DNA from: a virus
Lineage: Duplodnaviria > Heunggongvirae > Uroviricota > Caudoviricetes
Length of the DNA stretch: 11,017 bases
Reading direction: 5' to 3' (one strand)
IMG/VR virus record: IMGVR_UViG_2778261354_000002
Coordinates: 1-11,017 of that record
Shown here: piece after piece, positions 1 to 11,017 of the stretch
How positions within the stretch are numbered: position 1 is the first letter of the stretch
Layout of the letters: every line of letters starts with the position of its first letter
Notes under the pieces: model-generated
Databases searched by the model: none
What the model saw: the letters and a program-made list of their open reading frames with translations, nothing else
What the model was told of the DNA's origin: nothing
Translations under genes and position numbers: made by a program

Positions 1-152
1 CTCGTTAGCCCATGAATAACAATCAGAAAGTACCATAACAGACCCGAAGAAAATGAAATATAAGAGAAGATCAACGGGTGAGGAAAAAGTTCAAAAAATC
101 GCTGCCGGGGAGGAAGGAAACTACCGGATGGAAAGAGTCCCCCTAAAGCAGA

Positions 153-201
153 CTGACAGACATCACAAATCCCCGGGTGGGGATTTGTGTATAAGAGACA
201 G
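153..201. repeat. Short palindromic element ending in a Tn5/IS50-type terminal-repeat-like 19-mer (183-201, ATTTGTGTATAAGAGACAG), with a perfect 8-bp inverted repeat (167-174 / 179-186) and a degenerate partner arm (153-170)
   Basis: 183-201 matches the reverse complement of the Tn5 mosaic end (AGATGTGTATAAGAGACAG) at 17/19 and of the IS50 outside end at 17/19. Orientation places the element interior toward lower coordinates and gpI on the flank. Confidence 0.4.
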
Positions 202-753
202 GGTAATGCAGGGGTTCGGTAGCGTCGTGTCCGGGTACACCGTAATGATGTCTCCGTCATGACTCAGTGCGCCGGTAAATACCTCCCCTCTGGCAATGTA
301 CGTCAGTCTCAGCGCCTTCAGGTGACGGCTTACCGGCTTCGCCAGCGCAATCATGCGCTCCATTTCCAGGTAGGTTGTTTCAGTCAGTCCGGCATGTGTC
401 ACATCGATGTTGAGACGAAAACTGCCTGGTGGGTCGTTGTTCTCCCACCACTCTGTAATGCTCAGCAGCGCACCGAACGGGGCGATGGCCCGCCGCATGG
501 CGCTGATGGTTCCCTTGTGGCGGTGTACTGCCCACGACTCACGAATAATCTGCCTGCGGGTTTCTTCCGGCCACGTCTTGTCCCAGCGGTCCACGGAAAG
601 CGCCCACGCCAGCCACGGCAGCAGTGCTTCAGGGCATTCGTCCGCATTCCACAGGGTGTTAAGTTTCACCGGCAGCTGGCTGAATTTTTCCCCGGAACGA
701 TCAACGGTTTTCAGAAAAACACTGGCGGACGGCGGAAGTACCGTGTCACTCAT
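163..753 (-). CDS. I: P2-family baseplate/tail protein gpI (196-aa ORF; the last ~14 codons are read from a transposon-end-like sequence, so the native C-terminus is uncertain)
   Basis: ATG at 753-751 overlaps the gpJ stop by 8 nt. Protein resembles P2 gpI as recalled (WLAWA[LF]SVDRWD, EWWENNDPPG-type motifs) and sits after J as in P2. The 3' end (163-204) coincides with a Tn5 ME/OE-like 19-mer. Confidence 0.8.
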   Translation of the reverse strand: MSDTVLPPSASVFLKTVDRSGEKFSQLPVKLNTLWNADECPEALLPWLAWALSVDRWDKTWPEETRRQIIRESWAVHRHKGTISAMRRAIAPFGALLSITEWWENNDPPGSFRLNIDVTHAGLTETTYLEMERMIALAKPVSRHLKALRLTYIARGEVFTGALSHDGDIITVYPDTTLPNPCITLSLIHKSPPGDL

Positions 754-1642
754 CGGTACCTCCTGCGCGAATCTCTGTGGCGGTGCAGCGCGCCGCCTGT
801 GTCTCGCTGATAACCAGATCCTCCGCAGGTTGTGTTAACTCCACCCGCTGAACCCCGGGGACATGCAGGGCCGCCATGATGGCGGAACGGGCCACGTCGC
901 GACCAATTCTTCTCTGCTCTGCCAGCCAGGCATCCAGTTGTGCCCGTGCGGCCTGAAGTATGGGTTCTGATTCCGGTCCCGGGTAAAAATAGAGTGCCGC
1001 ATCAATCGTGTAGCTGATGATTTCCGCGCTTTTCACTGTCAGCCTGTCTGCCACGGGGCGCACTGTTTCGTCGTTCAGTGCGGTTTTCACTTCGTTAATC
1101 AGTGCTTCGGTCGCTGTTCCGTCCCCGTCGGTGGAAAGTAGCGCAACCACAACTTCCGCCGGTGCCGGGCTGGTTGCTCTGGCATCTGCCACTTTTCCGC
1201 TTGCGCTGCGTGCAAAATACTCATACGCGCCGGAGGGTCCGGCAACGCTCAGCCCTTCAAATGCGCTCTGTATGCGCATTCTGAGCGCGGCGTCACTTTC
1301 CGTTACCGCCGGTGTGGTATCCGTTGCTTCGGTGATAACCAGACGCTGCACATTCATGTTCTCCCCCAGATTGTCCAGGTCGCTTCCGGTTGAATGACTC
1401 AGCATACAGGCCGCCACACCGTCATTGATACGCTGCCGCAGTAACAGCTCCCGCCATGCCATAGCCTGAGCGATGATGTTCAGTGGTTCGGACTCCAGTT
1501 CAATCGCTGCCGCAACGTCATCGCGCATGGCTTCCGGAAAGACGCTAATCATGAATGTCTTTGTCTGCGCCAGGATCACTTCATAGTCCAGCGATTCAAT
1601 GATTGTCGGCTGTGGCAGCTGCGATAAATCAATGGTTGGCAT
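746..1642 (-). CDS. J: P2-family baseplate assembly protein gpJ (298 aa from ATG at 1642; the track's upstream TTG at 1663 is less likely)
   Basis: N-terminus MPTIDLSQLP matches the recalled P2 gpJ start (MPIIDLNQLP); C-terminus ends GGTDE. A GGAGG Shine-Dalgarno lies 5 nt upstream of the 1642 ATG. Position W-J-I is conserved. Confidence 0.88.
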   Translation of the reverse strand: MPTIDLSQLPQPTIIESLDYEVILAQTKTFMISVFPEAMRDDVAAAIELESEPLNIIAQAMAWRELLLRQRINDGVAACMLSHSTGSDLDNLGENMNVQRLVITEATDTTPAVTESDAALRMRIQSAFEGLSVAGPSGAYEYFARSASGKVADARATSPAPAEVVVALLSTDGDGTATEALINEVKTALNDETVRPVADRLTVKSAEIISYTIDAALYFYPGPESEPILQAARAQLDAWLAEQRRIGRDVARSAIMAALHVPGVQRVELTQPAEDLVISETQAARCTATEIRAGGTDE

Positions 1643-1997
1643 CCTTCCCTCCCTGTATATCAACGGAATAATTCACACTTTGCAGGGTGTTCACTATCAG
1701 GTAGTTCATGGATAACACCGCGCCGCCGTTGCTTTTCCACGTCAGATCAATGCCGTTAATGGCAACGCGCGGCTCCCATCGTGTGATGGCGATCACGGCG
1801 GCACTCATACAACGCAGTCGGGTTATTTCATTTGCCGGACTGTCAAGAAGGGCGGGCAGGTTGCTGCCATACTCGCGCCGCATAACACGCGAACCTTCCG
1901 GTGTCAGGAGAATATCCGTGATTGACTGGTTCAGATGGTCGATGTCTGTCAGCGTTCCGGGGCCTGCGTGATTCATGCCTGTGTAACCGGTGCTCAT
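1629..1997 (-). CDS. W: P2-family baseplate wedge protein gpW (gp25/GPW lysozyme-like fold family), 122 aa
   Basis: ATGA overlap with the gpV stop at 1994-1997. Sequence MSTGYTGMN...GSRVMRREYGS resembles recalled P2 gpW (MTARYLGMN...GSRVMRRDYGS). Confidence 0.88.
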   Translation of the reverse strand: MSTGYTGMNHAGPGTLTDIDHLNQSITDILLTPEGSRVMRREYGSNLPALLDSPANEITRLRCMSAAVIAITRWEPRVAINGIDLTWKSNGGAVLSMNYLIVNTLQSVNYSVDIQGGKDANH

Positions 1998-2575
1998 TGT
2001 GGGCCTCCGCTCGTATCGCTACCGCTCTTCACTCCGCTATGTACGTGGGTGTGTACGGTGATGCCGTTTGAGCTCAGGTTGCCGCCGCTGTGTGTCACGT
2101 TGCCTTTCATGGTTCCGCCGTCGGTCAGCTCGAATGTTTTAGTCTTCAGGTGCTGCGTGCATTCCACCTCTGGCGTGTTCAGTGTGATGCGGGTTTCTGC
2201 TGTGATGGTTGCGGTTTTGATACCTTTTGCCGTCAGGTTGCTTTCCTGTGCGTTATAGCGAAATTCCGCACCGTCCGGCGCGGTGATGATCATTTCGTTT
2301 TCCAGTGCGCCCGGTGGTGGATTGTCATTACTGTACAGACTGCCCGCGCTGACGGCGGTTTCCGGATTGCCACCGGGGCAAAGGAGAAGCACCTGCTCAC
2401 CCGGTGATGGCGGGATCCAGATTCTGAATTTTCCGGCCCGTCCGCTGTTCCATCTGATCCAGTTGGTGGTCAGTCCGCCACTCTGAACCCGAACCTCCCA
2501 GGTGTCGGTGTTGATTTCCGTGACCACACCAATCCGCACAATGTTTTCCAGCAATCGCATAAGCTCAATGTTCAT
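1994..2575 (-). CDS. V: P2-family baseplate assembly/spike protein gpV, 193 aa
   Basis: ATGA overlap with the gpS stop (2572-2575). Position between S and W; His-rich C-terminal tip (HTHVHSG) typical of the central spike apex; size near P2 gpV. Confidence 0.82.
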   Translation of the reverse strand: MNIELMRLLENIVRIGVVTEINTDTWEVRVQSGGLTTNWIRWNSGRAGKFRIWIPPSPGEQVLLLCPGGNPETAVSAGSLYSNDNPPPGALENEMIITAPDGAEFRYNAQESNLTAKGIKTATITAETRITLNTPEVECTQHLKTKTFELTDGGTMKGNVTHSGGNLSSNGITVHTHVHSGVKSGSDTSGGPQ

Positions 2576-3207
2576 TTCGCAGCTTTCCCCAGTCCGGCAA
2601 TCACGGTTTCCGTGATTTGCTGTTTGTCTTTAGCGTTCAGGCCCAGCAGTTCGCGCACGGGGTATTTCGTGGCGTTTCCGGGCGAGACAAGGCTCACCTC
2701 ACCGAACTGGTGCACTCTGGCAATGCGCGCGGCCCGCCCCTGAAAACCGACACTGACGCCGCTCGGGTCGGGGGTGATTTTCAGAAAGCGCGGTGTTCTC
2801 AGTTTTTCGAACATGGGTGAGCGACGTGATGCTCTTGCTGCGACGCGCTGCGTGTTAATTTCCAGATAGTCTTCGATATCTGCCTTGTAAAACGTCCGGA
2901 TACCCCCGGCGTCGGTATCGTAGCCGGTAATTTTCCGCCCGAACCGTCCCCGGGATGTGCTCCAGTTTTTCAGGTTTCTTACCTGTCCGTCCTTCCAGAT
3001 GAACTTCACGCCTTTTTGTATGCGCAGTATCCGGCGTTTTCGTTTCTCCCAGGGCTGACCGTCCGGGGATACCTGGCTTCTGATGCGTTTTGTCTGTACC
3101 TGCCGGATGGCCTTACCCACGCTCATTGCCGTGCGCTGAATTCCGGCAGCTGACAGGCCTGAAAGAATGTCCTGAAAGATGGCATCCAGTTCGTGAACGT
3201 CTCTCAT
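2572..3207 (-). CDS. S: Tail completion / virion morphogenesis protein gpS family, 211 aa
   Basis: ATGA overlap with the gpR stop (3204-3207). C-terminal block ARIARVHQFG...RELLGL matches the conserved gpS motif (ARVHQYG...RELLGL in P2 as recalled). Confidence 0.82.
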   Translation of the reverse strand: MRDVHELDAIFQDILSGLSAAGIQRTAMSVGKAIRQVQTKRIRSQVSPDGQPWEKRKRRILRIQKGVKFIWKDGQVRNLKNWSTSRGRFGRKITGYDTDAGGIRTFYKADIEDYLEINTQRVAARASRRSPMFEKLRTPRFLKITPDPSGVSVGFQGRAARIARVHQFGEVSLVSPGNATKYPVRELLGLNAKDKQQITETVIAGLGKAAK

Positions 3208-3674
3208 GCACCGGCCTCTTCTGCGGTTTTCCAGGTCATGTCTTCAAACACCACGCGCCACGCTTCCAGTGCCCGGCTTACCGGTGGCTCACCGATATGC
3301 TCCGCGCTCACCGTGCCGTCATCGTTGCGGCGTACAATCACGCGCTCCCATACCGGGATTTCCAGAAGAATGTCAGCGCTGTCATCATCGTTGATGGCCG
3401 TCGAAAATTTGATGCTTTTGTTTTTCTCCGGATTGAGAAGAAGATCCGGCTGATTCCTGTACAGCCACGCCATGACCGGCAGCATGATGTTGTCGATGCT
3501 TTCGGTGAAGTCCATGACGAACAACACCAGATTGTAGCGGTACAGGAATGAGGGGGATTCTCCGGTGGTTTCAATGCCGCCGGATTCAATGAATACCGTG
3601 AATTTTTCCGGACTGGCTTTACACCACCGGCAATGTGCTGTTAACGCATCGCGGAATGAATTCAGTTTCAGCAT
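3204..3674 (-). CDS. R: Tail completion protein gpR family, 156 aa
   Basis: ATG at 3674-3672. Sequence MLKLNSFRDALT...PVMAWLYRNQPD...EPPVS resembles recalled P2 gpR, and it sits immediately upstream of S. Confidence 0.82.
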   Translation of the reverse strand: MLKLNSFRDALTAHCRWCKASPEKFTVFIESGGIETTGESPSFLYRYNLVLFVMDFTESIDNIMLPVMAWLYRNQPDLLLNPEKNKSIKFSTAINDDDSADILLEIPVWERVIVRRNDDGTVSAEHIGEPPVSRALEAWRVVFEDMTWKTAEEAGA

Positions 3675-3752
3675 GGGGGCACCGTTGTTCGTCTGGTTAC
3701 TGTGACCGGCCTGATGAGATGCCGGTCATTCTGGTTTGTCCTGGTATCACCG

Positions 3753-3920
3753 TCAGTTTAACGAGTTGCTTTCACCTGAACCTGATGCCGACTTTTTGGC
3801 GGCGGCCTCATCTGGTTTTTTGTTCCAGAAGTTTTTAACGGCTTTGTAGCCACCGGATAACAACCAGAGGACGCATACCGCAGTACTGAAATACAACATC
3901 ACCTGTTGAAATAAATTCAT
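3753..3920 (-). CDS. Unannotated small membrane protein, 55 aa (MNLFQQVMLYFSTAVCVLWLLSGGYKAVKNFWNKKPDEAAAKKSASGSGESNSLN); function unknown
   Basis: Hand-translated from the minus strand; below the ORF-track size cutoff. ATG at 3920-3918 is preceded by AAGGAG (3932-3927) with a 6-nt spacer; TGA at 3755-3753. One predicted N-terminal transmembrane helix followed by a Lys-rich hydrophilic tail. Lies in the AT-richer spacer between the esterase and gpR. Confidence 0.45.
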   Translation of the reverse strand: MNLFQQVMLYFSTAVCVLWLLSGGYKAVKNFWNKKPDEAAAKKSASGSGESNSLN

Positions 3921-4008
3921 ACATCGCTCCTTTGCATTGTGTGTATTGGTGAAAATTGCCAGAATGAAAATGACTTCATTAATGTCAAATTCATTAGCTT
4001 TCTTCTTT

Positions 4009-4037
4009 GCCCCTCCCGGATACGGAGGGGCTTTTTT
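4009..4037 (+). terminator. GC-rich hairpin (8-bp stem GCCCCTCC/GGAGGGGC) followed by T6; rho-independent terminator-like, oriented for the plus strand
   Basis: Stem 4009-4016 pairs with 4024-4031, loop 4017-4023, then CTTTTTTG at 4031-4038. It lies 15 nt past the esterase stop. On the minus strand the hairpin is followed by AAAGAAGAAAG rather than a U-run, so it is at most a weak or leaky terminator for the late operon. Confidence 0.4.
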
Positions 4038-4045
4038 GCTTACCG

Positions 4046-5974
4046 TCAGGCTGCCGGGCTGTTCACTTCCACTGTCAGCGTGTCAATCCACGTTTCATAC
4101 GTGTCTGTATTCGACGCATCCGTCAGAATAAGCGTGTTTTCCGCGCCATCGACTTTAAAGCGGGTCAGGGTTGTTTCCGGACCTTTTACCGTATCCACAT
4201 ACGGCGTGAATTTATTCTGTCCCCCGCCCGGATACACCAGTTCAAGCGTATGCCATTCATTGTTCAGCGTGCCAAAACCAGCGATTTTCTCTGATGTGTC
4301 GCCGTTTTTCATAAGGCTCAGCTTGTTGCTCTCGTCTGACTGAAGGAAGAGACCCACCAGGCACGGACTGGTACCTTCCGTTTTACCGACAAATTCAATT
4401 CCCTGAGCATCGCTCTCACTCAGTTTTAAATACATCGCAACGGCAATTTTCTTGTTAACTGCTTCGCCATTCACTTTAAACCGGCAGGTAATTTTGCCGC
4501 CGTTTTTCAGCAGTTCCGCCGCATTTGCCACTTCATGGGTCAGCTTCAGGTTCTGGGTATCGCCCTGGCTCAGTTTCAGCGCCCGTCCGGAAGTACTGGT
4601 ACTGTCCGTCACCACTTCTGCCTTACCTTCGCTCAGCGTCCAGCCCTGTGCGGCATAAGCACCTTCACTTTCTGCACCGCTGTACAGGGTGGTAACGTTA
4701 CTCTTCGGTTTTGCCGGTTCCGGGTAGTTTTCCGTTATATCGCCACCGGCAAGGAACGGTCCGTTACGCCCTGCATGGGTCAGGATTGCGGTGGCTATAC
4801 GGTCCGGCAGGATGCCGCGACGGGCCCATGAACTGAAGTGCATGGCGCGTGTCGGGTTCGTCCAGTTACCCGCCGTGCGTGATGCTGCGCCGTAATAATT
4901 TGCTTCCGGCACGTCCGGATCTTCTGCCGGGTTATTGGTCGGAACATTCGCACCGGTCTCATCCTTCATAAGTTCGACAAAATGCACATTCGGCTCACTG
5001 TTTTTACGGTACGCGCCATAAACCAGGCTGTATTGTGTCGGGTACTGTTGCTTCCACCAGAAGGTGGTGTCACCACATACCCACGGTACGCGAGCCGCAT
5101 CGCCGCCCAGACACTGACCGGCATACGCGGCCAGATCGGTACGGAACTGCTTCACCATGGCCGTAAACAACGCCGGATGCCCCGTGTAACCTGAAGACAT
5201 ACAGTCACCCTCGCCCTGCATCCAGTACACGGCCAGCAGGACGTTTTTCGGATTCTTTTCAAGGGCCGCCTTCGTGCGGGCAATTAAATCCATGTACAAC
5301 GGTTTACCCACACCCCAGCGGGAGGAATCCGCTGTTGCCCCCGTCTCCGGGTTATAGGTGCCCTCAGCACGATCGGTAAACGCAGAGCCGCCACGACTGC
5401 ACGGCACAATCAGGATCCCCGTATTAACCGGAATATAGGGCAGAAGACGTTTGGCAATATGCAGGCCGTGCCCGACACAACCATACTGACCACGGGAAAG
5501 GTCCGCGTTGGGGTGATTTTTGGCACTCATGTCTTCAACGTCATGGAGACAGTGATCGGCCTCAATCACATCGTTGTATTTACAGGCAGCACCACCCGGT
5601 CGGACCACACTGCGGCGGGCCAGCTGCTTAATGCGTGGATCGGGACGGTCGTAGCTGTCAGGCAGGGGCATACCTTCGCCGGTTGCCATATTGTTTGACT
5701 GACCTGCGGTGACCAGCACGTAGTAGTATTCCGGCTCCGTTGTTGATGCCGGAATGACGGTGGTCGTGCCTTCTTCATCAACAACAATTTCCGGCTCGTC
5801 TGTCACGGGCTGGTCTCCGGTCATGGCCTGCATGAGGTACCACGGTACACCCGGCTCTGACGCCACCTGTGCGTCACCCTGAAGCTGCCAGCCCAGCGCC
5901 AGACGTTCGTTAACCTTTTCCGCCAGTTCCTGACGGTTCATGGCGGTAATCAACTCAAAGTGTTTTTTGCTCAT
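4046..5974 (-). CDS. Prophage cargo: NanS-p-like sialate O-acetylesterase (DUF1737-like N-terminal domain + SASA/SGNH esterase core + C-terminal lectin-like domain), 642 aa from ATG at 5974
   Basis: AGGAG Shine-Dalgarno 7 nt upstream of the ATG at 5974-5972 (the track's longer 680-aa frame has no SD and overlaps the spanins). Motifs LVTAGQSNNMATGEG (SASA nucleophile block) and VYWMQGEGD (conserved WxQGE[SG]D block). No signal peptide. Length and domain order match phage-encoded NanS-p esterases of E. coli as recalled. Not part of the P2 backbone. Confidence 0.8.
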   Translation of the reverse strand: MSKKHFELITAMNRQELAEKVNERLALGWQLQGDAQVASEPGVPWYLMQAMTGDQPVTDEPEIVVDEEGTTTVIPASTTEPEYYYVLVTAGQSNNMATGEGMPLPDSYDRPDPRIKQLARRSVVRPGGAACKYNDVIEADHCLHDVEDMSAKNHPNADLSRGQYGCVGHGLHIAKRLLPYIPVNTGILIVPCSRGGSAFTDRAEGTYNPETGATADSSRWGVGKPLYMDLIARTKAALEKNPKNVLLAVYWMQGEGDCMSSGYTGHPALFTAMVKQFRTDLAAYAGQCLGGDAARVPWVCGDTTFWWKQQYPTQYSLVYGAYRKNSEPNVHFVELMKDETGANVPTNNPAEDPDVPEANYYGAASRTAGNWTNPTRAMHFSSWARRGILPDRIATAILTHAGRNGPFLAGGDITENYPEPAKPKSNVTTLYSGAESEGAYAAQGWTLSEGKAEVVTDSTSTSGRALKLSQGDTQNLKLTHEVANAAELLKNGGKITCRFKVNGEAVNKKIAVAMYLKLSESDAQGIEFVGKTEGTSPCLVGLFLQSDESNKLSLMKNGDTSEKIAGFGTLNNEWHTLELVYPGGGQNKFTPYVDTVKGPETTLTRFKVDGAENTLILTDASNTDTYETWIDTLTVEVNSPAA

Positions 5975-10965: not shown

Positions 10966-11017
10966 GAAAAGTCTCCTTTCCGGAATTGTGTATTCCATCA
11001 TGCGGGGGGGAGGGGGG

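Follow-up and report, generated by a model that had tools for sequence, protein, structure and literature searches.

The element described here is closest to IS50 and Tn5. Tn5 selects its targets by a loose consensus, GNTYWRANC. Class C group II introns insert at intrinsic terminators. Palindromic REP elements are the targets of the insertion sequences IS1397/ISKpn1 and ISRm22 (PMC1525189). Within the IS4 family, elements of the IS50 subgroup share the end consensus CW------Y---CA-A--W- (PMC2266710).

We analyzed a window of 11,017 bp, the whole stretch of DNA under study, which exact-protein look-ups equated with the entire contig NJZR01000056.1 (assembly GCA_002461255.1). A preliminary description had called attention to a Tn5-like repeat at one end of this window, where the baseplate gene I of a P2-like prophage runs out, and had considered an insertion sequence, a MITE-like element, a deletion of the tail-fiber module, or a library chimera as its source. 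We conclude with high confidence that ISEc13 transposed into gene I of an E. coli P2-like prophage and that the contig stops inside the element. ISEc13 is a catalogued element, and its insertion here is nothing out of the ordinary.

The ISEc13 end at the edge of the contig

The following features of the element lie within the window:

1–201, minus strand: transposase-proximal, outside end (OE)-like end of ISEc13, corresponding to nucleotides 1–201 of 1550 and cut by the contig end
1–36, minus strand: first 12 codons of the ISEc13 transposase (MVLSDCYSWANE...), with the ATG at 36–34, running off the contig
89–98, minus strand: GATTTTTTGAAC-type motif, a T-run plus TTGAAC, which in an alignment of ends is conserved in relatives directly after the hairpin
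164–189, no strand assigned: subterminal hairpin with a perfect 11-bp stem (164–174 / 179–189) and a 4-nt loop, recognized from its fold and from covariation in relatives
183–201, minus strand: terminal inverted repeat of 19 bp, reading 5′-CTGTCTCTTATACACAAAT on the minus strand, where the transposase presumably binds and cleaves
186–194, minus strand: TTATACACA, read from the sequence as identical to the DnaA box within the IS50 outside end, and putatively a DnaA box here also, by analogy with IS50/Tn5

Positions 1–201 are identical at 201/201 nucleotides to full ISEc13 copies in four genomes (L001, L005, L006, and L007) and at 200/201 to the copy in E2348/69. A megablast search with positions 1–210 found the element in 1685 of the 5426 complete E. 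coli genomes, at up to 31 places per genome, with every hit annotated as "IS4-like element ISEc13 family transposase"; 1416 records covered at least 80% of the query. The preference expressed in the preliminary description for a biological element was thus borne out, and of the sources it listed, an IS insertion is the correct one.

A full copy (that of L001) is 1550 bp long and encodes a 457-aa transposase, WP_000244358.1, that starts 166 nt from the tip. This coding sequence begins at the base equivalent to window position 36, and the 12 codons present in the window are identical to its start. The protein scores above the Pfam curated cutoffs for Tnp_DNA_bind and DDE_Tnp_1, while Dimer_Tnp_Tn5, at 24.1 bits, falls under its cutoff of 26.7. 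Crystal structures of Tn5 transposase align with it from end to end (E = 6e-84). The preliminary description had found no minus-strand ORF in the 150 bp beyond the repeat. The transposase gene does start there, and it was absent from the list of ORFs because it runs off the contig end.

The two ends of the element also resemble those of IS50. The far end, CTGTCTCTTGATCAGATCT, agrees with the IS50 inside end (IE) at all 19 positions; read in the direction of the gene, it terminates in ...GATCTGATCAAGAGACAG. The near end, ATTTGTGTATAAGAGACAG at positions 183–201, agrees at 17/19 positions with the Tn5 mosaic end, and likewise with the IS50 outside end, as had been reported; it is the sole such match in the window, and none of 200 shuffles yielded one. 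On the minus strand, it begins with 5′-CT and agrees with the IS50-subgroup end consensus at all seven specified positions. ISEc13 is a catalogued close cousin of IS50 in the IS50 subgroup of the IS4 family, and sequence comparison indicates that its resemblance to Tn5 reflects homology. In the literature, the papers we found mention ISEc13 only in resistome or mobilome listings.

What the window contains of ISEc13, namely the terminal repeat, the subterminal hairpin, a 165-nt leader, and 12 transposase codons, points in the same direction as the phage late operon. The TTGAAC at 89–98 is a candidate −35 element of the transposase promoter, by analogy with IS50; a simple sigma-70 promoter scan of window positions 1–900 returned no promoter.

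ISEc13 interrupts gene I after codon 184 of 239

On the prophage side of the junction, four features are relevant:

163–753, minus strand: truncated baseplate gene I, 196 aa, consisting of 184 native codons (753–202) and 12 IS-encoded codons (LSLIHKSPPGDL)
746–1642, minus strand: intact baseplate gene J with Baseplate_J domains, preceding I in the late operon that both share
202–210, no strand assigned: putative target-site copy GGTAATGC(A), 8–9 bp, whose duplicate would be expected at the unseen other junction
210–214, plus strand: AGGGG, the right half of the preferred ISEc13 target (C-run–N8/9–AGGGG), as derived from flank counts

The late genes in the window are ordered V, W, J, and I, with gpI after gpJ as in P2 (gpJ is a 305-aa ORF, compared with 298 aa as called; the start differs). 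Residues 6–142 of gpI match Pfam Tail_P2_I (E = 9e-47). As the preliminary description noted, the gpI frame runs into the 19-mer, and the stop codon of the fused frame falls inside the ISEc13 hairpin. The fused protein, WP_096843261.1 of E. coli, is on record from this contig only. Its native part is identical at 183/184 residues to the 239-aa gpI of the prophage in L118 and 88% identical to that of L002.

The earlier placement of the junction at the 3′ end of gene I holds relative to the 176-aa gpI of P2, which aligns to residues 1–174 with ~49% identity, but not relative to the protein's own lineage, in which gpI is 239 aa long (L118, L120, and L002). Alignment with P2 gpI, which had been proposed as a way to place the native stop, covers residues 1–174; in this lineage the stop comes at 239 aa instead. 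No relative was found in which gpI ends at the same position with the same downstream sequence, as the relatives' gpI runs on for another 55 codons past the break. The break therefore costs gpI a 55-residue tail and leaves the P2-homologous core in place. The lost tail is specific to the lineage and looks like two more copies of a ~30-residue repeat.

In the relatives, the stop codon of the 239-aa gpI overlaps the start of the tail-fiber gene H (MTQKYKTIITTEG..., also read as MTQKYKTIITTEGRRKLAE...), and in uninterrupted relatives H is followed by a DUF4376 fiber-assembly-type gene. The insertion lies 165 nt upstream of the start of H and is oriented with the late operon. The remainder of gene I, as seen in a relative, contains no start codon, and there is none in frame upstream within the IE-end sequence either.

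The junction between the element and the prophage is exact: identity to ISEc13 ends at position 201, and identity to P2-like prophages starts at 202. Two near-identical, uninterrupted E. coli prophages, those of L118 (99.26% over window 202–1688) and L120 (98.26% over window 202–4551), contain the empty site, which reads ...CTCCTCC/GGTAATGCA/GGGG... (slashes mark boundaries). Across the insertion point, both read ctcctcc/GGTAATGCAGGGG; a longer reading is ...aaatttctcctcc/GGTAATGCAGGGGTTCGG... The alignment to L002, a complete but more distant genome (~88–90% identical), likewise stops at window position 202. Since none of the 5426 complete E. coli genomes in the collection contains this junction, the insertion of ISEc13 into gene I is a recent, private event of this strain. 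In a phage collection, megablast with window positions 150–2600 gave no match; only the protein-level search was informative.

The sequence next to the tip is also typical of an ISEc13 target. In the direction of the gene, the target is (T)GCATTACC, after which the rest of gene I begins with GGAGGAGAAATTTATTG... Other ISEc13 copies are flanked by direct repeats of 7–10 bp, mostly 8–9. Among 21 distinct ISEc13 flanks, AGGG starts 8–11 nt from the IS tip in 13 (shuffled mean 0.73, maximum 5, over 5000 shuffles), and GGG starts at positions 8–13 in 18. Full copies have a C-run on the other side, for example acgCCCCT-gcataaac-IS-gcataaac-AGGGGcat. The flank in the window, GGTAATGC-AGGGG, has the modal form of these targets, N8-AGGGG. 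Because the junction runs precisely from tip to target and the flank is of the target type, we favor a simple cut-and-paste insertion, which would have duplicated the 8–9 bp GGTAATGC(A).

Origin of the contig end and whereabouts of gene H

NJZR01000056.1 is a draft contig assembled from short reads, and its first base marks where assembly broke off within a multi-copy repeat. The window ends within ISEc13 because the assembler was unable to cross a multi-copy insertion sequence, and the break came 201 nt in. Such a break is the default outcome of short-read assembly. When we counted places or contigs with the same terminal 23- or 31-mer of the IS tip, the tip of elements of this clade lay at most 300 nt from the end of the available DNA in 79 of 108 GTDB matches and in 13 of 20 IMG/VR matches. 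These 13 of 20 viral contigs share the layout of the window, in which the contig gives out at a multi-copy insertion sequence lying within a phage structural gene; none of the IMG/VR contigs with this IS end has the insertion at the same site.

The preliminary description had listed H as missing. H is absent from the window, but this does not amount to its loss, as the contig ends within the insertion sequence and relatives have the rest of I and H beyond this point. Searches for H and the remainder of I from this assembly, by protein search with the H N terminus, contig look-ups, and cluster listings, returned other assemblies only. The H protein search was incomplete, as it failed to return the full-length H from the very genome that had supplied the query; non-recovery of an H contig is therefore no evidence that H is absent. 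The database cluster that includes the fused gpI mixes I and H proteins (499 members, of which 40 were examined); an I-H fusion, raised by the clustering of the fused gpI with full-length H, was rejected as a clustering artifact. It is likely that the remainder of I, followed by H and the fiber-assembly gene, lies beyond the other end of the insertion sequence on another contig.

Could the insertion have been accompanied by a deletion? If an adjacent deletion or inversion, or recombination between ISEc13 copies, had followed the insertion, H, the fiber genes after it, and the 3′ end of I would have been lost or relocated. The genome probably has several ISEc13 copies able to recombine, given the up to 31 places per E. 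coli genome, and the searches made did not bring up H or the remainder of I from this assembly. However, these searches were not exhaustive, a contig end within a multi-copy insertion sequence is what short reads give by default, the flank is preserved and is of the kind expected at a primary insertion target, and nothing in the window requires a rearrangement. We consider this unlikely. Nor does the window support the removal of the fiber module put forward in the preliminary description, since prophages that are 98–99% identical have the rest of I and H past the insertion point. A misjoin by the assembler, which would have attached an ISEc13 end from elsewhere to a gene I without an insertion sequence, is very improbable. 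Repeats are where misjoins happen, and the junction is seen in one contig only, but the switch occurs exactly at the IS tip (CAG), inside a gene that is otherwise continuous and unbroken in relatives, next to the N8-AGGGG flank that ISEc13 prefers. A random join would not reproduce tip, gene continuity, and flank together.

Two further sources named in the preliminary description retain almost no probability. One is a remnant of a Nextera/Tn5 mosaic-end adapter, with the contig end as a library chimera. Apart from the 17/19 match to the mosaic end, the evidence is against it: a true adapter would match at 19/19 and carry the Nextera arms, to which the flanking bases correspond at only 3/14 and 6/15 positions, a dissimilarity already noticed; the match is located 201 nt into the contig, not at the contig's tip; the two mismatches are ISEc13's own bases; and all of 1–201 is native ISEc13 as found in finished genomes (200/201 in E2348/69), continuing into the transposase gene. 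The other, which we regard as about as remote, is an isolated MITE, a palindrome of ~50 bp, or else a lone pair of IS ends, located where gene I stops and with no full insertion sequence. It is true that positions 153–201 can be laid out as a pair of end-like arms in inverted orientation, CTGACAGACAT-CACAAATCCCC versus CTGTCTCTTATACACAAATCCCC. The core of this palindrome, the 11-bp stem, is well supported as DNA (fold of −12.5 kcal/mol, z = −4.0; none of 200 shuffles folds as well), but its extension to 153–201 consists of scattered pairs (~6/11, with a gap) and is unconvincing alone. The palindrome is part of each ISEc13 copy and not a separate insert, and positions 1–152 are, as in every full copy, the contiguous 5′ UTR and start of a full-length Tn5-type transposase gene.

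Under the favored reading, a simple insertion of ISEc13, the prophage would lose the 55-residue tail of gpI and have 1.55 kb placed between the late promoter and H; it therefore probably makes defective or fiber-poor tails. The truncated gpI retains everything that is homologous to the 176-aa gpI of P2, which bears on any loss of activity. Adapter contamination, a new mobile element, and a demonstrated loss of the tail-fiber module are all removed as leads. What is left is a prophage with a recent, strain-specific IS insertion that probably cripples tail assembly. For enterobacterial assemblies in general, a string resembling the Tn5 mosaic end can be a native IS50-family end, and genes that seem to be missing at a contig edge within an insertion sequence are usually just unassembled.

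The subterminal hairpin and target choice among ISEc13 relatives

The 23-mer that forms the IS tip recurs, without mismatch, at the ends of a family of IS50-like elements, 1.48–1.51 kb long, from Vibrio, Neiella, Shewanella, Alishewanella, Aeromonas, Serratia, and others. In 27 of 29 distinct related ends, the sequence inward of the 19-bp repeat is AAATCCCC-[variable stem-loop]-GGGGATTTTTT(T)GAAC, so that a homologous hairpin precedes a run of T6–8. RNAalifold on about 20–21 related ends returned a 9-pair stem, and at four inner pairs, 10–11 sequences each have changed on both sides with pairing kept. Read in the sense of the transposase, the relatives have a G+C-rich hairpin plus T6–8 just upstream of the conserved TTGAAC, GATC-pair motifs that resemble those at the promoter of the IS50 transposase, and an ATG at nucleotides 103–107. 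Compared with these relatives, ISEc13 has ~63 extra nucleotides before the GATTTTTTGAAC motif.

In ISEc13 itself, no T-run follows the stem (the tail is GATGTCTGTC or TATAAGAGAC), which departs from the form of an intrinsic terminator, and a terminator scan of window positions 1–900 called none. A simple scan of one relative left its hairpin unflagged too, probably because its stem is prolonged into the T-run by A/T pairing. The scan results neither support nor exclude a terminator. We infer from the aligned ends that the ISEc13 hairpin is its version of a conserved structure that, in the relatives, has the shape of an inward-facing intrinsic terminator. To judge from this shape and the covariation, the most likely role of the relatives' hairpin would be to stop transcription from outside before it reaches the transposase promoter. 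The protection of IS10 and IS50 from read-through is known and would be analogous in purpose.

The sites occupied by these elements have a structure of their own. Where full copies of the relatives are inserted, the host sequence forms a hairpin with the element at its apex, and these hairpins are plain rho-independent terminators; in L116, for example, the site reads cttaCCCCGCCGTTGGC/IS/GCCGTTGGCGGGGTTTTTTT. Across 103 distinct sites, the host bases adjoining the transposase-proximal tip follow a pattern: G or C at positions 1–2, G-rich at 8–12, and T-rich from ~15. TTTT occurs within positions 10–26 at 73 of these sites and AAAA at two, a strong orientation bias. As a separate observation, both ISEc13 and its marine relatives are found at the apex of hairpin-forming sequences, which in the relatives are rho-independent terminators.

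It is possible, and we propose it only tentatively, that the palindrome in the window is a local remnant of a feature of this IS50-like clade that combines a covarying subterminal hairpin with targeting of hairpin apices. The hairpin would lie just inside the transposase-proximal end and, in most members, would act as an inward-facing terminator (T6–8) before TTGAAC. An element inserting in this way would split a host terminator and bring its own; the marine relatives would use terminators, and ISEc13 sequences of the form C-run/N8–9/AGGGG. The site in gene I might then have been hit because of a chance resemblance to the preferred target. We found no description of this combined feature, or of hairpin or terminator targeting in the IS50 subgroup, in the literature searched. 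If it is indeed undescribed, the combination of a terminator-shaped hairpin with hairpin- or terminator-directed insertion would be modestly relevant to transposon regulation and target choice.

Set against the catalogued ISEc13 (the ISfinder name), the part visible in the window has no difference, and only the insertion site is new. ISEc13 resembles IS50/Tn5 in having a transposase that is a full-length homolog, one end that is the same as the IS50 inside end, both GATC sites included, another that matches the outside end at 17/19 positions including TTATACACA, and target repeats of 8–9 bp. It differs from IS50/Tn5 at two positions of the OE-like end, in its 165-nt leader with the perfect 11-bp subterminal hairpin, and in its strong preference for C-run/N8–9/AGGGG targets over the loose consensus of Tn5. 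A location at palindromic or hairpin-forming targets is common to the ISEc13 clade, the REP-targeting elements IS1397/ISKpn1 and ISRm22, and class C group II introns. Unlike the REP-targeting systems, the ISEc13 clade consists of IS50-subgroup DDE elements, and its targets are diverse hairpins and terminators rather than a single repeat family.

Target sites of ISEc13 and its IS50-like relatives

ISEc13 itself favors targets consisting of a C-run, 8-9 nucleotides of any sequence, and AGGGG, as seen at the ISEc13-carrying loci L001, L005-L008, and L122-L141, which include viral contigs, and in the window at 202-214. AGGG lies at 8-11 nt in 13 of the 21 distinct ISEc13 sites, and the direct repeats vary in length from 7 to 10 bp. 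Two viral contigs, L126 and L138, carry the element at one and the same site, CCCCTGCATAAACAGGGG, but in opposite orientations. An ISEc13-type end was also detected in a 430-bp Paraburkholderia sp. contig of very low coverage (0.8; L079), where enterobacterial contamination is a more probable source than a resident copy.

The exact 23-nt tip is common to ISEc13 and a clade of 1.48-1.51-kb IS50-like elements, which we found in marine and other gammaproteobacteria (GTDB loci L010-L117). Directly inside their transposase-proximal end, these relatives carry a covarying hairpin followed by T6-8 (for example, L116:2360-2424, L041, and L062), an arrangement with the shape of a terminator, after which come conserved TTGAAC and GATC-pair motifs.

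We examined the target sites of the relatives using both flanks in seven loci (L116, L095, L041, L075, L062, L025, and L100) and 103 one-sided flanks from L010-L117. The relatives sit within rho-independent terminators of the host, at the hairpin apex, and the duplicated 8-10 bp form the top of that hairpin. Orientation is strongly biased: TTTT lies beyond the transposase-proximal tip at 73 of 103 sites, versus AAAA at two of 103. We found no description in the searchable literature of such orientation-biased targeting of terminator apices by IS50-like elements.

The far contig end

The other end of the contig stops within a G-tract (11003-11017; GCGGGGGGGAGGGGGG) that lies in the intergenic spacer separating scaffold gene O from the terminase gene. 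Since a relative has GCGGGGGGAGGGGATGG at the matching place, the final bases of the window differ. The cause could be low coverage or a sequencing effect of poly-G, or this could be a further break, although we saw no IS sequence here.

gpI repeats and gene content compared with P2

In the 90% protein cluster with members P0038, P0039, P0040, and P0041, the fused gpI is grouped with 239-aa gpI proteins and full-length H tail-fiber proteins (535 aa). As the gpI and H sequences are unrelated, we rejected an I-H fusion, and their co-membership is a clustering artifact.

The prophage also encodes a protein beside its tail genes:

4046-5974, minus strand, 642 aa; domains SASA (sialate O-acetylesterase-like) and DUF6645; lysis genes on one side, tail genes R and S on the other

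This may be a receptor-modifying or depolymerizing virion protein, and P2 is not known to have a counterpart.

In this prophage lineage, gpI closes with three repeats of ~30 residues (window 202-300; L118:1400-1655, a near-identical uninterrupted prophage) with the pattern …G-x-x-x-D-x-x-I-x-V-x-P-D-T-x-[LI]-P-x-P-C…, and ISEc13 cuts between repeats 1 and 2. P2 gpI (176 aa) appears to end after repeat 1. In the more distant relative from a complete genome (L002:1-3836), the tape-measure gene and the next tail gene converge on H and the DUF4376 gene, whereas the P2 order is co-directional; thus, the tail-tube/tape-measure block of this relative appears inverted relative to P2.
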